DNA from: Escherichia coli
GTDB taxonomy: Bacteria > Pseudomonadota > Gammaproteobacteria > Enterobacterales > Enterobacteriaceae
Assembly (NCBI RefSeq): GCF_050320075.1
Contig: NZ_CP190018.1
DNA: 64,000 bases
Strand: one strand, 5' to 3'
The notes under the pieces were generated by a model that was given only the letters and a program-made list of their open reading frames with translations, was not told the DNA's origin and searched no databases. This document shows, in pieces, positions 4,102-15,050 of the stretch. How positions within the stretch are numbered: position 1 is the stretch's first letter; each line of letters begins with the position of its first letter. The position numbers and the translations under genes are program-made.

Positions 4102-6693
4102 ATGCATCAATCTGGTTCTGTTTCTCTTTGTCGTTCCGCAATATCTGTTCTGGTGGCTACAGCGTTATATTCACCCATAGCATTGGCATCAACAGTTGAG
4201 TATGGTGAGACAGTTGATGGTGTTGTCCTGGAAAAAGATATCCAGCTGGTTTATGGGACCGCCAATAATACGAAAATCAATCCTGGCGGAGAACAGCATA
4301 TTAAAGAATTTGGTATAAGTAGTAATACTGAAATTAACGGCGGGTATCAGTACATTGAAATGAATGGCACCGCAGAATACTCAATATTAAATGATGGTTA
4401 TCAAATTGTTCAAATGGGTGGTGCGGCAAACCAGACTACCCTCAATAATGGTGTGTTACAGGTTTATGGCGCAGCGAATGAACCTACGATTAAAGGCGGG
4501 CGCTTAATTATTGAAAAAGATGGGATTACCGTCTTTGCCGCTATCGAAAAGGGAGGATTACTGGAGGTTAAAGAGGGGGGATTAGCATTTGCGGTAGATC
4601 AGAAAGCCGGCGGTGCGATTAAAACAACCACCCGGGCCATGGAGGTATTCGGAACAAACCGTCTCGGTCAGTTCGATATCAAGGATGGTATTGCTAATAA
4701 TATGCTGTTGGAAAACGGCGGAAGTTTGCGAGTTGAAGAAAATGACTTCGCTTATAATACCACTGTGGATAGTGGCGGCTTACTGGAGGTTATGGATGGC
4801 GGGACTGCAACTGGCGTTGATAAAAAAGCAGGCGGAAAATTAATTGTCTCAACGAATGCGCTGGAAGTGAGTGGTACAAACAGTAAAGGCCAATTTAGTA
4901 TAAAAGATGGTGTGTCAAAAAATTATGAACTGGATGATGGTTCCGGGCTCATTGTTATGGAGGACACGCAGGCCATTGATACTATCCTTGATGAGCATGC
5001 CACTATGCAATCGCTGGGAAAGGATACTGGTACGAGAGTGCAGGCAAATGCGGTATATGATCTCGGTCGATCAGATCAGAATGGAAGTATCACGTATTCC
5101 TCAAAAGCCATCTCTGAAAATATGGTTATCAACAATGGCCGCGCTAACGTCTGGGCTGGCACAATGGTTAACGTTTCAGTCAGAGGGAATGATGGCATTC
5201 TTGAGGTCATGAAGCCGCAAATAAATTATGCGCCCGCAATGTTGGTGGGTAAGGTAGTGGTTTCTGATAGCGCTTCTTTTAGAACGCATGGTGCCGTGGA
5301 TACCAGCAAAGCGGATGTTTCGCTCGAAAATAGCGCATGGACCATCATTGCCGATATCACTACGACGAACCAAAACACTCGCCTCAACTTAGCCAACCTT
5401 GCGATGTCTGGCGCAAATGTGATTATGATGGCTGAGCCAGTGACTCGTTCATCTGTGACGGCAAGTGCGGAAAATTTCATTACGTTGACCACCAATACCC
5501 TGTCGGGAAATGGCAATTTTTATATGCGTACCGATATGGCTAATCATCAGAGCGATCAGCTCAACGTCACCGGTCAGGCAACAGGTGATTTCAAAATATT
5601 CGTGACGGACACCGGTGCCAGCCCGGCAGCAGGAGATAGCCTTACACTGGTAACAACGGGCGGCGGTGATGCTGCATTTACGTTGGGCAATGCCGGAGGC
5701 GTTGTTGATATCGGTACGTATGAATATACCTTGCTGGATAATGGCAACCATAGCTGGAGCCTCGCAGAGAATCGCGCGCAAATTACCCCTTCAACCACTG
5801 ATGTGCTGAACATGGCAGCAGCACAACCGCTGGTATTTGATGCAGAACTGGACACCGTGCGTGAGCGTCTTGGTAGCGTAAAAGGCGTTAGTTACGATAC
5901 GGCGATGTGGAGTTCGGCAATTAACACCCGCAACAACGTGACCACTGATGCGGGAGCTGGCTTTGAGCAAACATTGACGGGCCTGACGCTCGGTATCGAT
6001 AGCCGTTTCTCCCGTGAAGAAAGCAGCACAATTCGCGGCTTGTTCTTTGGTTACTCTCATTCTGATATTGGTTTTGATCGCGGCGGCAAAGGTAATATCG
6101 ATAGCTACACCCTGGGGGCTTATGCCGGTTGGGAGCATCAGAACGGTGCCTATGTTGATGGAGTGGTGAAAGTTGACCGTTTTGCCAACACCATCCATGG
6201 CAAGATGAGTAATGGAGCAACAGCGTTTGGCGATTACAATAGTAACGGCGCGGGTGCTCATGTCGAGAGCGGGTTCCGTTGGGTTGACGGATTGTGGAGT
6301 GTTAGACCCTATCTGGCCTTTACCGGCTTTACCACAGATGGTCAGGACTACACGTTATCAAATGGCATGCGCGCGGATGTGGGAAATACCCGGATATTAC
6401 GCGCTGAAGCGGGAACGGCGGTAAGCTATCACATGGACCTGCAAAACGGTACGACGTTGGAACCCTGGCTGAAAGCCGCCGTGCGTCAGGAATACGCCGA
6501 TTCTAACCAGGTGAAAGTTAATGACGATGGCAAATTTAATAATGATGTGGCTGGAACCCGTGGCGTTTATCAGGCTGGGATAAGGTCATCGTTTACCCCG
6601 ACGTTAAGCGGTCATTTGTCAGTCAGTTATGGCAATGGCGCAGGGGTAGAATCGCCGTGGAATATTCAGGCGGGTGTGGTCTGGACGTTCTGA
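4102..6693 (+). CDS. yejO: Autotransporter (type Va) outer membrane protein, intact 863 aa
   Basis: N-terminal signal peptide, long Gly/Thr/Asn-rich repetitive passenger, C-terminal beta-barrel ending in WTF; SD-like AGGATGA upstream of the ATG. Confidence 0.75.
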   Translation: MHQSGSVSLCRSAISVLVATALYSPIALASTVEYGETVDGVVLEKDIQLVYGTANNTKINPGGEQHIKEFGISSNTEINGGYQYIEMNGTAEYSILNDGYQIVQMGGAANQTTLNNGVLQVYGAANEPTIKGGRLIIEKDGITVFAAIEKGGLLEVKEGGLAFAVDQKAGGAIKTTTRAMEVFGTNRLGQFDIKDGIANNMLLENGGSLRVEENDFAYNTTVDSGGLLEVMDGGTATGVDKKAGGKLIVSTNALEVSGTNSKGQFSIKDGVSKNYELDDGSGLIVMEDTQAIDTILDEHATMQSLGKDTGTRVQANAVYDLGRSDQNGSITYSSKAISENMVINNGRANVWAGTMVNVSVRGNDGILEVMKPQINYAPAMLVGKVVVSDSASFRTHGAVDTSKADVSLENSAWTIIADITTTNQNTRLNLANLAMSGANVIMMAEPVTRSSVTASAENFITLTTNTLSGNGNFYMRTDMANHQSDQLNVTGQATGDFKIFVTDTGASPAAGDSLTLVTTGGGDAAFTLGNAGGVVDIGTYEYTLLDNGNHSWSLAENRAQITPSTTDVLNMAAAQPLVFDAELDTVRERLGSVKGVSYDTAMWSSAINTRNNVTTDAGAGFEQTLTGLTLGIDSRFSREESSTIRGLFFGYSHSDIGFDRGGKGNIDSYTLGAYAGWEHQNGAYVDGVVKVDRFANTIHGKMSNGATAFGDYNSNGAGAHVESGFRWVDGLWSVRPYLAFTGFTTDGQDYTLSNGMRADVGNTRILRAEAGTAVSYHMDLQNGTTLEPWLKAAVRQEYADSNQVKVNDDGKFNNDVAGTRGVYQAGIRSSFTPTLSGHLSVSYGNGAGVESPWNIQAGVVWTF

Positions 6694-6755
6694 TAACAGA
6701 AAATAAACAGGCCGTGATGTGTCGCGGTCTGTTTATCGAATTAAATGCAGATATA

Positions 6756-6788
6756 AAAAAACCAACCGTAAAGGTTGGTTTTTTTTGG
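6756..6788. terminator. Bidirectional intrinsic terminator (ACCAACC-GTAAA-GGTTGGT flanked by A-run and T-run)
   Basis: Perfect 7-bp stem with A7 upstream and T8 downstream; directly followed by a degenerate copy of the tRNA-Pro 3' end, so it likely marks the island's right junction. Confidence 0.6.
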
Positions 6789-7162
6789 GATTTTTGGCAC
6801 GAGAGTAGTTTAATTGAGCCTGTAACTGTATGATTTTAAAGATGTAGATTAATTGAGTTTTGAAATCGTATATCCAAACGTATAACTAAAATGATTTGCT
6901 GCAAAAATGTACAGCTTTAACCGTTATCATTTTCCGGCTATTCGCTATGAAGCTGGCTGGTGGATAAGCACGGATAACCTGACATCTACAGCCGCCTTAA
7001 AAGCTGAACCCGACAAGCATATCGGCATCATGCCCACCAGCGTGACGCATTTTTTTAATTGCGCGGGCGTAAAAATTTGACGGGGCGGACAGTTCCATAA
7101 GTAATGGATTGCAGGAATTTCGCCCCCCCTCCTGAATGCAATTTTTCGTATATATATACAAA

Positions 7163-7290
7163 ACCACCCGTCCCACCTGTCCCGCCTGTCCCACTGGCAC
7201 CTAACAAATTGATTTTGTTAGAAATAAATTAGGTAAGGTAGGACAAGTCCAGGCTGTTTTGGGACAAGTTGGGGGGGAGGTGGGACAAGT
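7163..7290. repeat. Iteron block 1: three GTCCC units at ~10-bp spacing, 8-bp palindrome CTAACAAA-N5-TTTGTTAG, three GGGACAAGT units at ~21-bp spacing
   Basis: Read directly: TCCCACCTGTCCCGCCTGTCCCA at 7169-7194; palindrome at 7201-7221; G(G)GACAAGT at 7241, 7261, 7282. Confidence 0.6.
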
Positions 7291-7824
7291 CGAGCGAGTG
7301 AATCAAGCCGTGTTAGCGCGGTAAAGCGACAGTGCCGCCGCAATTTTGCGTTGTCGGGAGGCCACCGTAACAGCCACCATACGCGCACAATCTTCGGTGG
7401 TAACGCAATCCAGACGTGCGCAACATCCCCAGATAGGAAATCATTACCTAGCACAGCTAATTGCGCCAGAATCGATTACAGCGCGTTTCTGTGGCATTCA
7501 AGAACGGCTATCACTAGTGTATTGATATGTAATCCGCATATGAGTTTAAGCAACAAAATGATCCCCTTTCGAAAAAGGCACTAACCGTTTTTTCCGAAAT
7601 GATCCGTTGGTGATTTTGTAACTTATTGTTTTGTAGATGTAATTTTAAACTTGATAGGGTTATAAATAGGGGGCGTTTTTGTCAAGAATTGCAAATAATG
7701 CTCGTTTATTGTTCTTTGTTTGTTTGTTTTCTGTTCGTTGATGGGGGATCATTTTGCACTTTTTGGGGGATCATTTCGGAGGGGGGGGGCTGGCAACACG
7801 CCAGCACCCTCGATGCGTTTGTTT

Positions 7825-8034
7825 TTAGCAGTACTCCCAGTCTGTGGCTAGTAGGCTCTCAGGAGATAGCGTAACGCTATCCTCTGTGACGGGATTCAAC
7901 GCAATCAAATCGTTTCCGCGCCGTTCGAGAAAGACGATGTACGGAAGATGCCAGGCACTGCGGCGAGCTGGCACGCGTCGGCCTGGCTGCAACTTGTCGA
8001 GAATATCCACCAGCGAAACGTTCATGTGATTCAA
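7825..8034 (-). CDS. Hypothetical small protein (69 aa with TTG start; 66 aa from internal ATG)
   Basis: ORF with AGGAG about 5 nt upstream of the TTG; last gene of the ssb-finO-perC cluster; no recognisable family. Confidence 0.35.
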   Translation of the reverse strand: MNHMNVSLVDILDKLQPGRRVPARRSAWHLPYIVFLERRGNDLIALNPVTEDSVTLSPESLLATDWEYC

Positions 8035-8090
8035 AAAACTCCTGAAACGCTCTACAACTCAATAACACAAAAAATAATGCAGAACTGCCA

Positions 8091-8375
8091 CTATAAAACC
8101 TTGTCTGTCTGGTAGTTCCGCCAGACAGATTTTGCGATTTCTATCCCCATATCCGCCTGTGTGCGGTGTGCTGCCTCTCTCAAGCTCCCGAAATTATCCA
8201 GCATGACGGGCGAACGTGCTGCCTTGTGGATACATTTCGCGCGACGCTTTACTGCCTGTTCGCGCTCCTTATCGGTGTTCACCTGTTGCATGACCTCAGC
8301 CCATCGGGCCGCCGCTCTCCGGTACAGGCCTTTAGCCTCCAGATCTTCCGCTTTGCTGTCGTGAATCATACTCAT
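8091..8375 (-). CDS. PerC-family transcriptional activator-like protein (94 aa)
   Basis: Motif EDLEAKGLYRRAAARWAEV resembles the PerC family signature; start ATG overlaps stop of upstream gene (ATGA coupling). Confidence 0.5.
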   Translation of the reverse strand: MSMIHDSKAEDLEAKGLYRRAAARWAEVMQQVNTDKEREQAVKRRAKCIHKAARSPVMLDNFGSLREAAHRTQADMGIEIAKSVWRNYQTDKVL

Positions 8376-8908
8376 ACGCCAGCTTGCTCCTTGTTCGACT
8401 TACGTTTGCGCTTCTCTTTCAGTGCCATCAGTCGTGCTTCCGCGTCCTGCTGTTCCTGTTGTGTCACCTCGCCGCATGGCTGGCTATTCAGATCGTAACG
8501 CACGCCACCAGCCATTAAGGCACGGTAATAACGCGGAGAATGAGCATAAGATGCTAGCGCCGCACGTAATGCCCCTGACCCAAAAGCCAGCGCCCTGACG
8601 GCAATATCCTGTATCAGGTCTTCAAATATTCCTACCTTAAGCGGCTTCGGTGATTCCAGGCTGAATAATTCAGGCCATAGTTCAATAAGACGGTTAACGC
8701 GCCTGCGGTTTTTGCCCTGGCGTTTGGTCATATGCCGCCACGGTGTCGCCCCTGTGGGCTTCTGTTTGCGGCTCTGCTGTGCGTTCTGATTGCCGGGTAT
8801 CACTTTATGCGCTGATGTGGTTTTATCCTGCTGCTGTGTCGTCTGTGTCTTTTTCTGTGGTATGCCGTAAATGCCTTTCGGTTTTCTGCTAATAGTCAGT
8901 GTAGTCAT
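8372..8908 (-). CDS. ProQ/FinO-domain RNA-binding protein (178 aa) with basic low-complexity N-terminal extension
   Basis: C-terminal two thirds align by eye with E. coli ProQ N-terminal domain (PLKVGIFEDL..., LRAAL.SY..S.RY...GG.RYDL...PCGE). Confidence 0.6.
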   Translation of the reverse strand: MTTLTISRKPKGIYGIPQKKTQTTQQQDKTTSAHKVIPGNQNAQQSRKQKPTGATPWRHMTKRQGKNRRRVNRLIELWPELFSLESPKPLKVGIFEDLIQDIAVRALAFGSGALRAALASYAHSPRYYRALMAGGVRYDLNSQPCGEVTQQEQQDAEARLMALKEKRKRKSNKEQAGV

Positions 8909-8943
8909 TATTTGTTAACCTCTGTTAGTGAATCCACTGGCAG

Positions 8944-9369
8944 TTAAAATGGTATTTCGTCCTCATACGGGTCATCCTGCTGGCCCGTCTGCTGCTTTGT
9001 TCTGTTCAGTGCGTCAGTAGCCTGCCCTTGCTGTCCTTTCCTGCCTCCTGGTCGCACGGTTCGCGCACTGATTACGCTGCCTGCGATGACCTGCCAGCCC
9101 TGCCGCATTTCCCCGTTCTGGTCTGTCCACTGGCTTATCTGCATGTTACCCGCCACGCTCACCAGTTCGCCTTTCTGGTGTTTTGCCAGTGCATCGGCCT
9201 GTCTGCCAAACGCCAGGACGGATAACCACATCGTCGCTGTTCCGTCATATGCCTGACTGCACGGAAGGGGAACAGCCATACTCACCAGCGCCATTGGTGT
9301 TCCCTTGCTGGTGGTTTTTAACTGCGGGTCAGCCACCAACCGCCCGTAAGCTGATATTTGTGCCGTCAT
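8944..9369 (-). CDS. ssb: Single-stranded DNA-binding protein (SSB-like, 141 aa)
   Basis: OB-fold pattern similar to E. coli SSB (W..V.AFG, WTDQNG) and acidic C-terminal tail EDEIPF (cf. DDDIPF). Confidence 0.6.
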   Translation of the reverse strand: MTAQISAYGRLVADPQLKTTSKGTPMALVSMAVPLPCSQAYDGTATMWLSVLAFGRQADALAKHQKGELVSVAGNMQISQWTDQNGEMRQGWQVIAGSVISARTVRPGGRKGQQGQATDALNRTKQQTGQQDDPYEDEIPF

Positions 9370-9444
9370 ATTGTCTGCTCTCCGGTTTTAAATGTTGGTT
9401 GGATTTTTAATGTCCACCAGCCAGGCAAAAAATAACGCCTGCTG

Positions 9445-9580
9445 ACTTGTCCCAAAATGCTCCTAACTTGTCCCAAAATCACCTTAACTTGTCCCGCTCT
9501 TGTCCCACTTTTTCTGATATTACCCAATATAATTCAGTATGTTATGTGTGTTTCTCACAGGTTGGGACAGGTGGGACAAG
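9445..9580. repeat. Iteron block 2: four ACTTGTCCC units (~21-bp spacing) plus GGGACAGGTGGGACAAG; inverted copy of block 1
   Basis: ACTTGTCCC at 9445, 9466, 9487; TTGTCCC at 9500; GGGACAGGTGGGA at 9564-9576 is the exact reverse complement of TCCCACCTGTCCC in block 1. Confidence 0.6.
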
Positions 9581-9605
9581 AGTCTTTAAACCTACACGCG
9601 AGAGA

Positions 9606-11741
9606 TTAACCACCTTCATCATCATGATCCTGTGCAAGTAAAAGGCCGTACACCCTTAGTCGTGCCCCCTTCATGTGCTTAAGACGTGGTGTTCTGATTT
9701 GCCATCCTTCCCCGCTGGCTGGCTTTTTCAGCATTCCGGCTTCGTGAAGGGCTCTTGCTACGGCATCCTTGTTAAATCCCTTCGCCACATGCGATTTAAA
9801 TGGCTCCGGCAGGACGTAAAACAAAACAGGCTCACCGTAACGCCCCTCGCTTTCCCTGTAGCCGTACAGTTCTGAAATCGGCAGGCTTGCAGGGTCATAA
9901 TTGACAGGCGCAAACCTGCTCATGCCGTAGGCAGTAAGAAATGCCTCTGCCTGTTCAATAATCTGCCTGTGTTCCTTGTTACCCGTGCCGAACTCCTTCA
10001 CCCAGGCATTAAAGTTATGCTGAATGGCATCACAGCACGTCTGAACATTCCAGCCCGTAACATGACCGGACAGCACAAGCGCGGCCTCCAGTATGGCGAA
10101 TCGTTCCCCTACGCGATGAACCTGTTCGCCGTAGCTCTCCGGTATTAGGTTGCGCCACCGTTCACGGCACGCCCTTACCGTGTCCTTAGCCTCCTGCTGG
10201 TGGGCTGCCAGCCATTTAACCCATTCACGACCCGCCGCCCCGTGGTTTTCTGTCCAGGCGGCTTTTAACGCGTCTGCGTGCGCCTTTCCTGTGCTGTATT
10301 CGTGAAACTGCGTAGACTTCTCCATCGGCACGTTAAGCAACCTGACAAGCTGCCCCGCCTTGACTTTTATCCCCTCACTTTTGAGGAATGTTTCAACATC
10401 CATTTCTCCGGTACTGATCGCCACCGTGCGCCAGTGTTTTATCTCCCGGTTGCCGCCGTCCTTCGCCCCCTGTAATTTCCCGGAACCGTTAAACAGCGTA
10501 TAGGCTGACGTGGACACCTCCCGCGCGTTTCCGGCCTGGCCTATTTCATCCAGGGGTAACAGCCCGTCGTTGTGCGCCTCTGCCTCGTTAGCGATACCTA
10601 ACGCTGTGCCGTACCAGGTCAGCCGTTGCGCGTCCGGCTCTCCCCATAAACTTGATGCGATGTTCTGTGTGGTGGTTTTCCCTGCCGATGATTGTTCGAA
10701 AAGATGTACCCCGAAGCCGTCAGCGCCCACCAGCCCGATTAATGGTGCTGATAACGATACCGCCACACCCAGCATCATGGACGGATTACCACCAGCCAGT
10801 CGCGCCACTGTATCGCGCCAGCCCTCTGTCGTTCCTGCTACGGAATAACCATTAACGGCAGCCGTTTTTCCGGTAAACAGGATCGGTTTTTCAGACTCAC
10901 CAATGACTGAACCGTCCGGCATGATGTACGCGCCAAAATGCCACCCCGTTGTTGTGCTTAACTGCCATTCCTCATGGTTTCCGTTTAACTGCATCCAGTC
11001 AGCCAGGATAGCCCTGTATTTGCCGTTGGTTGTCACATTGAGTCCGTGGTCTTTCAGCAGCCGCCAGCCGTCACGGTCGCCAATGCCACCGCACGGGATC
11101 GCCATTGTGATGACTTCATGATTTGCTAATTTTTTCCAGCGCATCACGCGGTAATGCTCTTTACCGATCGTTCCCGTTCCCAGTAGTTCAAGCGGGGAAC
11201 ATAACCACGCCTCAGGCCGGATAATTTCGCCTGACTGTTTGTCAACTTTGGGCGTTACCCAGAAAACACCATCGGCGCGACTTTCAACGCGGGGTTTTAA
11301 TTCATCATCGCCCTGGCTTTCTGTGATTTTTTTCTTTAAGGGCAACACCAGACTTTCCCCGCGCTCGTATTCGTCTTTGAGGCGAGGCAACTGGTCGGAT
11401 AAATCCGCCGGGCTGGTGTCAGTTATCCCCGCATATTCGTATACGGTCTTCACGCCAGCCACAGCCAGCAATGTGACGATCTGTGTAAGGCTACGTTCAG
11501 TGATGTGCCCTGCGCGGTAAACACGCACACACTGACGGCTATCATCAATAATCTGATAACCGGTAATATCTTTCAGGTGTTCATCTGACAGAACGACAGG
11601 CGGCACATTGTCGGCGGCAATATGCTTACCTGCCCATTCCTGCCACTCTTTCGCATGGCTCCACGCATCACTACCCGCAAAAATGATAACCTCCGTCATT
11701 TTGTCGGCTGGCTGGTGCTTTAAGTTCGGTGCGCGTTTCAT
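9606..11741 (-). CDS. Replicative primase-helicase (TOPRIM-like N-terminus plus P-loop NTPase, 711 aa)
   Basis: Walker A-like SSAGKTT, large size, position downstream of int/alpA as in P4 alpha-type and PICI pri-rep genes; start overlaps upstream small ORF. Confidence 0.75.
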   Translation of the reverse strand: MKRAPNLKHQPADKMTEVIIFAGSDAWSHAKEWQEWAGKHIAADNVPPVVLSDEHLKDITGYQIIDDSRQCVRVYRAGHITERSLTQIVTLLAVAGVKTVYEYAGITDTSPADLSDQLPRLKDEYERGESLVLPLKKKITESQGDDELKPRVESRADGVFWVTPKVDKQSGEIIRPEAWLCSPLELLGTGTIGKEHYRVMRWKKLANHEVITMAIPCGGIGDRDGWRLLKDHGLNVTTNGKYRAILADWMQLNGNHEEWQLSTTTGWHFGAYIMPDGSVIGESEKPILFTGKTAAVNGYSVAGTTEGWRDTVARLAGGNPSMMLGVAVSLSAPLIGLVGADGFGVHLFEQSSAGKTTTQNIASSLWGEPDAQRLTWYGTALGIANEAEAHNDGLLPLDEIGQAGNAREVSTSAYTLFNGSGKLQGAKDGGNREIKHWRTVAISTGEMDVETFLKSEGIKVKAGQLVRLLNVPMEKSTQFHEYSTGKAHADALKAAWTENHGAAGREWVKWLAAHQQEAKDTVRACRERWRNLIPESYGEQVHRVGERFAILEAALVLSGHVTGWNVQTCCDAIQHNFNAWVKEFGTGNKEHRQIIEQAEAFLTAYGMSRFAPVNYDPASLPISELYGYRESEGRYGEPVLFYVLPEPFKSHVAKGFNKDAVARALHEAGMLKKPASGEGWQIRTPRLKHMKGARLRVYGLLLAQDHDDEGG

Positions 11742-12431: not shown

Positions 12432-12640
12432 TTGGCAGCCTCCTGTAACGTTGGGATATACCCACCGCCGGAGGTGGTAAGCTCGATGGCGGTGGACTGT
12501 ACAGGGTTACCACAACTGGTGTTACAGGAAACCAGCCTGACCGAAGTCAGCCCCATACAGCCCACCATTGATAAGGCGTGCGCGTGCGCCGATACAAAAA
12601 AAGACGCCTGGCGCGTCTGTATCGCCTGTAACTCCAGCGG
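12432..12640 (-). ncRNA. Candidate structured regulatory RNA / leader (P4 immunity-like seqA-seqB-seqC arrangement)
   Basis: On the minus strand: GTTACAGG (12632-12625), intrinsic terminator, UUCG-tetraloop hairpin (12550-12537), complementary CCTGTAAC (12528-12521), then GTTACAGGAGG (12449-12439) overlapping the SD of the first ORF. Confidence 0.3.
12595..12618 (-). terminator. Intrinsic terminator inside the leader region (AGACGC-loop-GCGTCT followed by T7 on minus strand)
   Basis: 6-bp GC-rich stem, 5-nt loop, run of seven T on the transcribed strand. Confidence 0.5.
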
Positions 12641-13077
12641 GGTGGTAATCCCGACACCCGTTTTATGAGGTGCGCAGGGAGTATATCCCGTTTTCTTGCT
12701 CATGTGGTCGGATGTGTTGAAGGTGTGCCCACCACACAAATCACATTGCTCACCAGCCGGAAATATGGCATTGTTGGCGATGCATTCAAGTTTAATATAT
12801 GCCTTCTGGCGACCCTCTGCGGTCGCCTTTGTTTTATTCGTAAGCAACATATTTCTTTTGTCGTTTAAGCTATGCGATTGTACGTTTCCGTTTAAAACGG
12901 AAGTGCTATTAGTTCAATTAATTCGTTCGTACGGTTTGAACTGAATAATAACATCAGCCATAATTTTTTATGGTTGAACGAAAACCTGCCCCTGTTTGGG
13001 CATTTTTGCCAGTATTCATAATGTTCTCTCTTAATTGTTTTGTTGCTTGATAGTAATCAGGCCAGCGTTAATCACAC

Positions 13078-14973: not shown

Positions 14974-15050
14974 TGGTCGGCACGAGAGGATTTGAACCTC
15001 CGACCCCCGACACCCCATGACGGTGCGCTACCAGGCTGCGCTACGTGCCG
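14974..15050 (-). tRNA. proL: tRNA-Pro (anticodon GGG), 77 nt with encoded CCA
   Basis: Reverse complement reads CGGCACGTAGCGCAGCCTGGTAGCGCACCGTCATGGGGTGTCGGGGGTCGGAGGTTCAAATCCTCTCGTGCCGACCA; cloverleaf with GGG in anticodon loop. Confidence 0.9.

Follow-up and report, generated by a model that had tools for sequence, protein, structure and literature searches.

A conserved array of four GATC elements in a PICI-like Escherichia coli island resembles the pacA elements of D6-type phage-plasmids

The DNA analyzed here is a 64-kb stretch of an Escherichia coli genome (hereafter, the window). Between yejO and tRNA-Pro(GGG), from 6796 to about 14990, it holds an 8.2-kb island whose genes all lie on the minus strand: int, an AlpA-like HTH gene, an icd-like gene, DUF4222, DUF927 pri-rep, ssb, proQ/finO, and perC. 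As in PICI-type satellites, we found int, alpA, pri-rep, an origin, att repeats and a helper-type packaging site, together with a small size and no structural genes. The island encodes no terminase subunit. Its family is present in about 1% of complete E. coli genomes. The features needed here are listed below; the bit scores of the four sites were computed with a matrix trained on elements of D6-type phages, described further on.

6796..6805, unstranded: attR core (GGCACGAGAG), direct repeat of the 3' end of tRNA-Pro(GGG), 14974-15050
7052..7132, unstranded: phiP27/HK97-type cos region, core about 7081-7090 (CGGGGCGGAC)
7170..7291, unstranded: second Pri-Rep iteron set (GTCCCAC / GGGACAAGT), beside cos; AT-rich core with a perfect IHF consensus at 7202-7214
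7554..7566, plus: site L1, CAAAATGATCCCC; GATC at 7560; 15.2 bits, rank 4 in the window
7593..7605, plus: site L2, TCCGAAATGATCC; GATC at 7601; 15.4 bits, rank 3
7606..7741, unstranded: AT-rich spacer, 136 bp, 70% A+T; plus-strand G/C 3.1 and T/A 2.3, strongly strand-asymmetric
7742..7756, minus: site R1, CAAAATGATCCCCCA in the minus-strand reading; GATC at 7747; 15.6 bits, rank 2; first of the repeats noted initially
7764..7780, minus: site R2, TCCGAAATGATCCCCCA in the minus-strand reading; GATC at 7769; 15.9 bits, rank 1; second of the repeats noted initially
7781..7789, plus: G9 run, derived state of GGGGTGGGG; 5' side of the hairpin stem
7784..7826, plus: hairpin GGGGGGCUGGC AACAC GCCAGCACCCUC, followed after 5-6 nt by TTTGTTTTT; just past the ORF69 stop codon
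7825..8034, minus: ORF69, small beta-rich protein of 69 aa; phrog_7206, E=1e-6; homologues outside the island in D6-type phage-plasmids
9444..9582, unstranded: cognate origin, directly 3' of DUF927 pri-rep; two GGGACAAG iteron sets around an AT-rich core

The cos region is 81% identical to the annotated cos of the Stx2e phage phiP27, which is of the HNH-terS-terL type with cos between HNH and terS. The 7052-7132 segment also stands in 354 E. coli genomes and in another island family (L007-L009). Each island has its iterons in two places, 3' of rep and beside cos, an arrangement reminiscent of P4 ori plus crr. In a sister island family (L007/L054), whose Rep is 79% identical, AACCCGC iterons stand at both corresponding places (L054 8340-8475, L007 9665-9820), and the switch from GGGACAAG to AACCCGC accompanies changes in the variable N- and C-terminal regions of Rep. 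Because the iterons change with the Rep variant at each of the two locations, the GGGACAAG iterons were taken to be the cognate origin of the island. The layout at 9444-9582 matches the architecture of Gram-negative PICI origins, in which two iteron sets flank an AT-rich core (PMC6092414). The GATC array described below was considered as the cognate origin and rejected, since it is the Rep-specific GGGACAAG iterons at 9444-9582 and 7170-7291 that co-vary with Rep.

The sister islands have no GATC array. The same slot holds 8.7 kb of cargo in them, which starts immediately beyond a 59-bp segment (7438-7496) that they have in common with the present island; thus, the array and ORF69 make up the whole accessory block of the present island variant. 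The 59-bp segment contains an imperfect palindrome (GCGCCAGAATCGATTACAGCGC), is 85% conserved across otherwise different island families, and forms the left edge of the variable cargo slot. In L007 (10700-18400), L008 and L009, three large hypothetical genes of ~2.0-2.8 kb each, which may be a defence system, sit in the slot of ORF69 and the array, and a strong plus-strand terminator (AAGCCCGCGCTGCGGGCTTTTTT) faces them. Sister islands integrate elsewhere, beside yqeG or dinD, and L007/L054 has a tRNA-Gly at the int end. Decayed copies of the island were seen in L002, L025, L053 and L004, with internal deletions that fuse int either to ssb or to position 7512, or that bring icd next to position 7435; among them, one carries IS3 and a restriction-modification-like insertion. 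The small "plasmid" pZ1323HEC0475-3 (10,790 bp) is a circular element resembling capsid-forming PICIs, with int, alpA, icd, primase, a protease-capsid fusion and a related cos segment. Its origin is built of TGTTCACC iterons, which we take to be the P4 type I repeat.

On the minus strand, Rfam placed two RNAs upstream of the icd-like gene, a C4 antisense RNA at 12485-12572 (78.7 bits) and isrK at 12597-12673 (61.6 bits), where the RefSeq annotation has an "ash family" pseudogene. Neither the C4 loop of the island nor its target (12436-12449, covering the icd ribosome-binding site) is like that of the P1-like phage D6, so the island and D6 are heteroimmune. The array was also considered as a target of the C4 or isrK RNA of the island, and this was rejected since there is no complementarity between them.

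The initial annotation had reported two direct repeats with a 22-bp period and a GATC in each, in a ~520-bp non-coding stretch next to a last small ORF. The repeats are exact: TGGGGGATCATTT occurs at 7742-7754 and 7764-7776, identical at 13/13 positions, 22 bp from start to start with a 9-nt gap, and the locus reads ...GATGGGGGATCATTTTGCACTTTTTGGGGGATCATTTCGGAGGGGGGGGGCTGGCAACACGCCAGCACCCTCGATGCGTTTGTTTTT. Overlooked were two inverted copies, CAAAATGATCCCC at 7554-7566 and TCCGAAATGATCC at 7593-7605, complementary at 13/13 positions to 7744-7756 and 7768-7780. In a common orientation, the four sites read AAAATGATCCCCT, GAAATGATCCGTT, AAAATGATCCCCC and GAAATGATCCCCC, with the consensus RAAATGATCC, extended to a ~12-bp form RAAATGATCC(C/G)C. 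Each site carries one Dam GATC, and these four are all the GATCs within 7100-8100. The array consists of two sites, the 136-bp AT-rich spacer, and two inverted sites, the inward-facing pairs standing 145 bp apart (-> -> <- <-), for a total of 227 bp. The 11-mer GGGGATCATTT has three exact copies in the window, all inside 230 bp, where the calculated expectation for 64 kb is ~0.03; the repeat is therefore far above chance. The non-coding stretch is larger than first described, since about 1 kb (6806-7824) has neither an annotated gene nor one supported by homology.

Conservation of the array was assessed in an alignment of 15 island copies (E. coli, 14; E. albertii, 1). The array positions are fixed in all 15, and variability in the spacer is 2-3 times that in the arms. 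Within the sites, three substitutions were found, all one-sided and uncompensated, and the GATC of R1 has become GAGC in 2/15 copies. The most variable part of the block is a (TTTG)n stretch at 7700-7725, in which 14/25 columns vary and relatives differ by 4-nt indels. The array block occurs at 120 places in 116 genomes, with one or two per genome (median 1); a dispersed repeat or MITE was rejected on this count.

The small ORF beside the repeats is real. Some RefSeq records list ORF69 as hypothetical protein WP_156629376, and it is left unannotated in NZ_CP123240 (E. coli YZLc1-3), which is identical to the window; the start of ORF69 could be TTG (69 aa) or ATG (66 aa). The sole phage homologue of ORF69 is orf11 of D6, located between pmgM and pmgR. 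When ORF69 was compared with 72,556 plasmids, 114 of 116 matches were ~90-kb non-mobilizable plasmids of Escherichia, Salmonella or Shigella (best E 9e-5). These are the same population as the carriers of D6-type PacA, with accessions in common. The AF2 model of ORF69 (pLDDT 81) shows a small beta fold that matched nothing significantly in the PDB, and on this ground ORF69 was rejected as the DNA binder of the array. A likeness to DUF2829/Tad2 was dropped as well, being unsupported by Pfam and PDB sequence searches. Upstream of ORF69, the final codons of perC include a hairpin (CTGTCTGG-N8-CCAGACAG, 8105-8135), with ACAAGGTTTTATAG after it on the minus strand. Between perC and ORF69, this hairpin may serve as a weak terminator or as a processing site.

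D6 also contains elements like those of the array. The 5' part of its pacA has five GATC elements in 135 bp (CATGATCCG, AATGATCTC, AAAATGATCCCC, AAGATCCC, AATGATCCC; orientation <- <- -> <- ->), the densest GATC cluster of the 91-kb genome. Five elements stand at identical positions in D6, in a 92%-identical relative, and in a plasmid whose PacA N-terminus is 57% identical (D6 vs L074); the consensus across D6, L075 and L074 is AATGATCC(C). Around the elements, neighbouring codons and amino acids differ between L074 and D6 while the DNA element stays. This persistence despite codon change argues for selection acting on the DNA. Because of its position, GATC density and conservation, the cluster is presumed to be the D6 pac site.

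The likeness between the island and D6 was spotted before any matrix was built. A matrix was then trained on only the 15 D6-group elements and applied to both strands of the window (128,000 positions). The four island sites took ranks 1-4, and the next position scored 13.9 bits. Conversely, with a matrix made from the four island sites, a D6 pacA element came first among 182,000 D6 positions, at 18.0 bits. The 9-mer AATGATCCC occurs twice in D6, both times in the pacA cluster, and the window has four copies, of which the array accounts for three; an exact 12-mer, AAAATGATCCCC, is common to the array and the D6 pacA cluster. The hexamers of P1 scored just 5-7.5 bits with the D6-trained matrix, and the island element is therefore D6-type, not P1-type: the match to a helper phage's own pac-region elements holds for the D6 group and not for P1. 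The initial annotation had likened the repeats to methylation-sensitive regulatory or origin elements. The array does look like a Dam-site-bearing array recognized by a protein, but its closest match is a presumed phage pac site, and the island origin uses other iterons.

In P1, pac lies in the 5' part of pacA and consists of seven GATC hexamers (TGATCA/G), arranged 4 + 3; the two clusters flank about 90 bp that hold an IHF site and the cut sites, and cleavage is Dam-regulated (PMC10028697; NC_005856 annotation). Cloned P1 pac functions on phagemids (PMC10028697), and the pacA coding context is thus not a known requirement. The island array shares with P1 pac short GATC elements, often after A or AA (AATGATCA, AATGATCG), in two clusters around a central region: its 2 + 2 sites flank 136 bp. 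It differs in the element itself (TGATCC vs TGATCA/G) and in its dimensions (2 + 2 sites in 227 bp vs 4 + 3 in 161 bp). P1 pac is inside a coding gene with mapped IHF and cut sites, whereas the island array is in non-coding DNA in which tblastn detected no PacA remnant. With the D6 pacA cluster, the array shares the consensus AATGATCC(C), mutual top matrix matches, and the relation of ORF69 to D6 orf11. The D6 cluster, in contrast, has five sites of mixed orientation inside pacA, while the island has four in two inward-facing pairs outside genes.

On these grounds, the reading that we favor, with confidence evenly balanced between belief and doubt, is that the array may be a D6-type pac-like packaging signal or, alternatively, a decoy for the pacase. 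During phage growth, a D6-type pacase (PacA/PacB) would bind both site clusters and would cut, in a Dam-dependent manner, in or near the AT-rich spacer, which would be bendable. Headful filling would then proceed either from island concatemers made by the island Pri-Rep or from the integrated island and flanking chromosome. The array would thereby offer a second transfer route besides the phiP27-type cos, and the two routes would serve unrelated helper types. In a weaker version, the array would divert or titrate the pacase and so interfere with the phage, for which the same recognition would be needed. That the D6 cluster acts as pac, that PacA would bind the island sites, and that cleavage, Dam dependence and transfer would follow, we infer from the sequences.

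Several observations carry this reading. The array is fixed in 15 copies, its elements match those of D6 pacA in both directions, and the logic of P1 pac is alike; ORF69 independently links the island to D6-type plasmids; and a satellite must be packaged, this one already having a helper-type cos. D6-type phage-plasmids, counted in its support, were found in 81/5426 complete E. coli genomes. Other observations speak against a pac mimic. Site number, orientation and spacing are unlike those of D6 and P1, there are just four sites, and the IHF match has one mismatch. R1 has lost its GATC in two copies, and the C4 antisense loop is not that of D6. No extended nucleotide or PacA-coding homology between the island and D6 was found by blastn or tblastn, so that the likeness amounts to ~9-12 bp per site. 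A P1-size head, moreover, would take about 12 island copies. Among the matches listed, no strain had both the island and a D6-type plasmid; since by our own estimate ~1 was expected by chance, this is uninformative.

The spacer raises the possibility that the four sites are operators, bound by an island- or phage-encoded regulator, possibly with looping, and controlling promoters between them. In favor of this, the sites are exact, they are conserved, and the DNA between them has a promoter-like sequence on either strand: TTGTAA-18-TAATTT on the plus strand (7616-7645, 9.2 bits) and TTGACA-15-TATAAC on the minus strand (7685-7659, 9.8 bits), with TGTCAA kept in relatives. These scores are mediocre, however, as the best promoter sites of the window reach 12-13 bits, and a consensus promoter scan called none in the spacer. 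A consensus scan of the array for DnaA, Fis and IHF sites likewise found nothing besides a single IHF match with one mismatch, inside the spacer at 7619-7631. There is no gene downstream on either side and no candidate binder, ORF69 having a small beta fold without a PDB match. The operator model also leaves the match to the D6 pacA elements unexplained, and we regard it as unlikely.

The array could instead be a non-functional relic of past recombination with a D6-like phage, conserved only since the block is young. The block 7300-8075 is far less diverged than the neighbouring perC, which suggests recent spread, and one GATC has been lost in two copies. Yet no residual PacA coding or nucleotide homology was detected, the spacer varies more than the sites on either side of it, and each of the four sites retains the whole consensus and scores above all remaining positions of the window. 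A relic is, in our judgment, decidedly unlikely. A pacA pseudogene remnant had been considered separately and was rejected: tblastn and blastn gave no support, and the significance of a Smith-Waterman alignment came mostly from the motif itself.

Alternatively, as the initial annotation had suggested in noting a hairpin followed by poly-C, the stretch could act at the RNA level, a role that could coexist with one in DNA. As the 3' UTR of the alpA-to-ORF69 operon, it would present a hairpin and a rut-like segment, rich in C and poor in G, onto which Rho would load to block read-through into the second iterons and cos. The minus-strand RNA of 7606-7790 (185 nt) lies directly after the ORF69 stop; with C/G 3.3, its composition fits that of a C-rich, G-poor rut RNA of at least 70 nt. 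No U-tract follows the hairpin on that strand, so the feature of an intrinsic terminator is missing there. A rut site, however, requires neither exact 12-mers nor inverted copies, and L1 and L2 are G-rich on this RNA. Conserved pairing of the arms, as RNA or as a cruciform, was rejected: the three substitutions are uncompensated, and the fold z of ~ -3 follows from the inverted repeats themselves. An Rfam scan of 6000-10000 at E<=1 matched no RNA family. Overall, we consider the RNA-level explanation improbable. The hairpin at 7784..7826 is a separate matter. It is stable in both MFE and centroid folds (z -2.5), is invariant in 15/15 copies except for a T that interrupts its G run in most of them, and is followed on the plus strand, after a gap of 5-6 nt, by UUUGUUUUU. 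The consensus terminator scan made no call here; together with TTTGTTTTT, the hairpin is probably a plus-strand terminator (facing ORF69) or an insulator.

The array might also be an orphan replication origin of the PICI type, one that would depend on a non-cognate initiator supplied by some other satellite or by a phage. Its layout equals that of Gram-negative PICI origins (PMC6092414), with two site sets flanking an AT-rich region, the 22-bp period is iteron-like, and comparable GGGGATCATTT arrays lie beside HTH_36 initiator genes in unrelated viral contigs. Against this, the Rep of the island uses GGGACAAG iterons that co-vary with it, while the GATC array does not co-vary and is absent in the sister family; the array has no DnaA boxes; and phiP27 has no such sites. 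The recurrence across phyla is background: a "universal iteron" was rejected because GGGGATCATTT pairs occur at 11 viral and 17 genome loci, but scrambled 11-mers give 8 viral loci each. We hold this origin to be very improbable. A likeness to the phiP27 origin was likewise dropped, as phiP27 has no GGGATCATTT sites and its origin has other iterons. At 10813-10856, just after the intragenic origin iterons of its HTH_36 initiator gene, phiP27 carries AAAACATGATCCGCAAG twice, 24 bp apart, with a GATC in each (11.7 bits with the D6-element matrix).

The poly-G tract next to R2 had been proposed to vary in length by strand slippage. The 9-bp tract is present at 7781-7789 and is the sole G9/C9 run in the window, but 15/100 shuffled windows have at least one such run, so that by itself it is not significant. 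Among the 15 island copies, two have G9 (the window and strain GS04), four have G4TG4 (GGGGTGGGG), seven have G5TG4 (GGGGGTGGGG), and two have TG4TG4 (TGGGGTGGGG). A T thus interrupts 13/15 copies, there is no length series, and both G9 copies are of equal length; the proposed comparison across relatives yielded one substitution and one 1-nt indel, with no phase-variable length in the 15 copies. Since the run is uninterrupted in just 2/15 islands and the others carry a T, it is a recent, incidental T-to-G substitution in one sub-lineage and not a phase-variable contingency tract. The tract lies outside any conserved ORF and outside any predicted promoter spacer. A small hydrophobic plus-strand ORF through it (MLVYCSLFVCFLFV...) was rejected, its frame being broken in several copies by 4-nt and 1-nt indels. 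The window resembles homopolymeric contingency tracts in having a run of nine G, and it differs from them in that the tract shows no length polymorphism among relatives, has no ORF or promoter context, and is interrupted in 13/15 copies. Although nine G are long enough to slip and four Dam sites are at hand, a G9 contingency tract or a Dam epigenetic switch of the pap/agn43 type is extremely improbable here, with a T in 13/15 relatives, equal G9 lengths, no ORF and no promoter spacer.

Returning to the pac-like signal, we compared the island with known satellites. Quiles-Puchalt et al. are said to have found in 2014 that SaPIbov5 is mobilised by both pac and cos helpers. Like the island as proposed here, it would be one satellite with two kinds of packaging signal for two helper types; unlike the island, which is without a terminase subunit, it is Gram-positive and its pac route runs through its own TerS. 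Its cos transfer is mentioned in PMC6092414. The Gram-negative PICI EcCICFT073 shares with the island int-alpA-pri/rep, an origin with two iteron sets around an AT-rich core, a helper-type cos without terminase, perC alleles, and tRNA integration. It differs in having two lambda/phi80-type cos sites, where the island has one phiP27/HK97-type cos and a putative pac-like array; a P1/P4-type C4-icd immunity region of the island is a further difference. More tentatively, and with doubt somewhat outweighing belief, we propose that the island family may be a satellite or hitch-hiker of D6-type phage-plasmids of the P1 family, combining a terminase-less, Dam-regulated pac mimic and a homologue of a gene from the D6 head-morphogenesis cluster with an HK97/phiP27-type cos, and thus using two helpers by two mechanisms.

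P1 pac, the capture of cos by PICIs, and dual-signal satellites are already known. What would be new is a D6-type pac mimic that comes without a terminase, sits on a Gram-negative PICI-like island, and is accompanied by a D6-gene homologue and a cos. A literature search found no paper on the array motif in a relevant context; the literature searched for it yielded no account of a naturally occurring P1-family satellite, and the accessible part of PMC11389934 makes no mention of one. Pairs of helper and satellite are mostly unknown since packaging signals are short and hard to recognise. Shared cos/pac motifs are named as the way to pair the two in PMC11389934. For the poly-G tract the practical message is negative, as it is not a contingency locus. 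Through the 9-12-bp element, on the other hand, a chromosomal island present in ~1% of complete E. coli genomes is linked to D6-type phage-plasmids, and these phage-plasmids often carry resistance genes. Should the array work as a pac, satellite biology would reach the P1 family, and a single 8-kb island would exploit two unrelated packaging machines.
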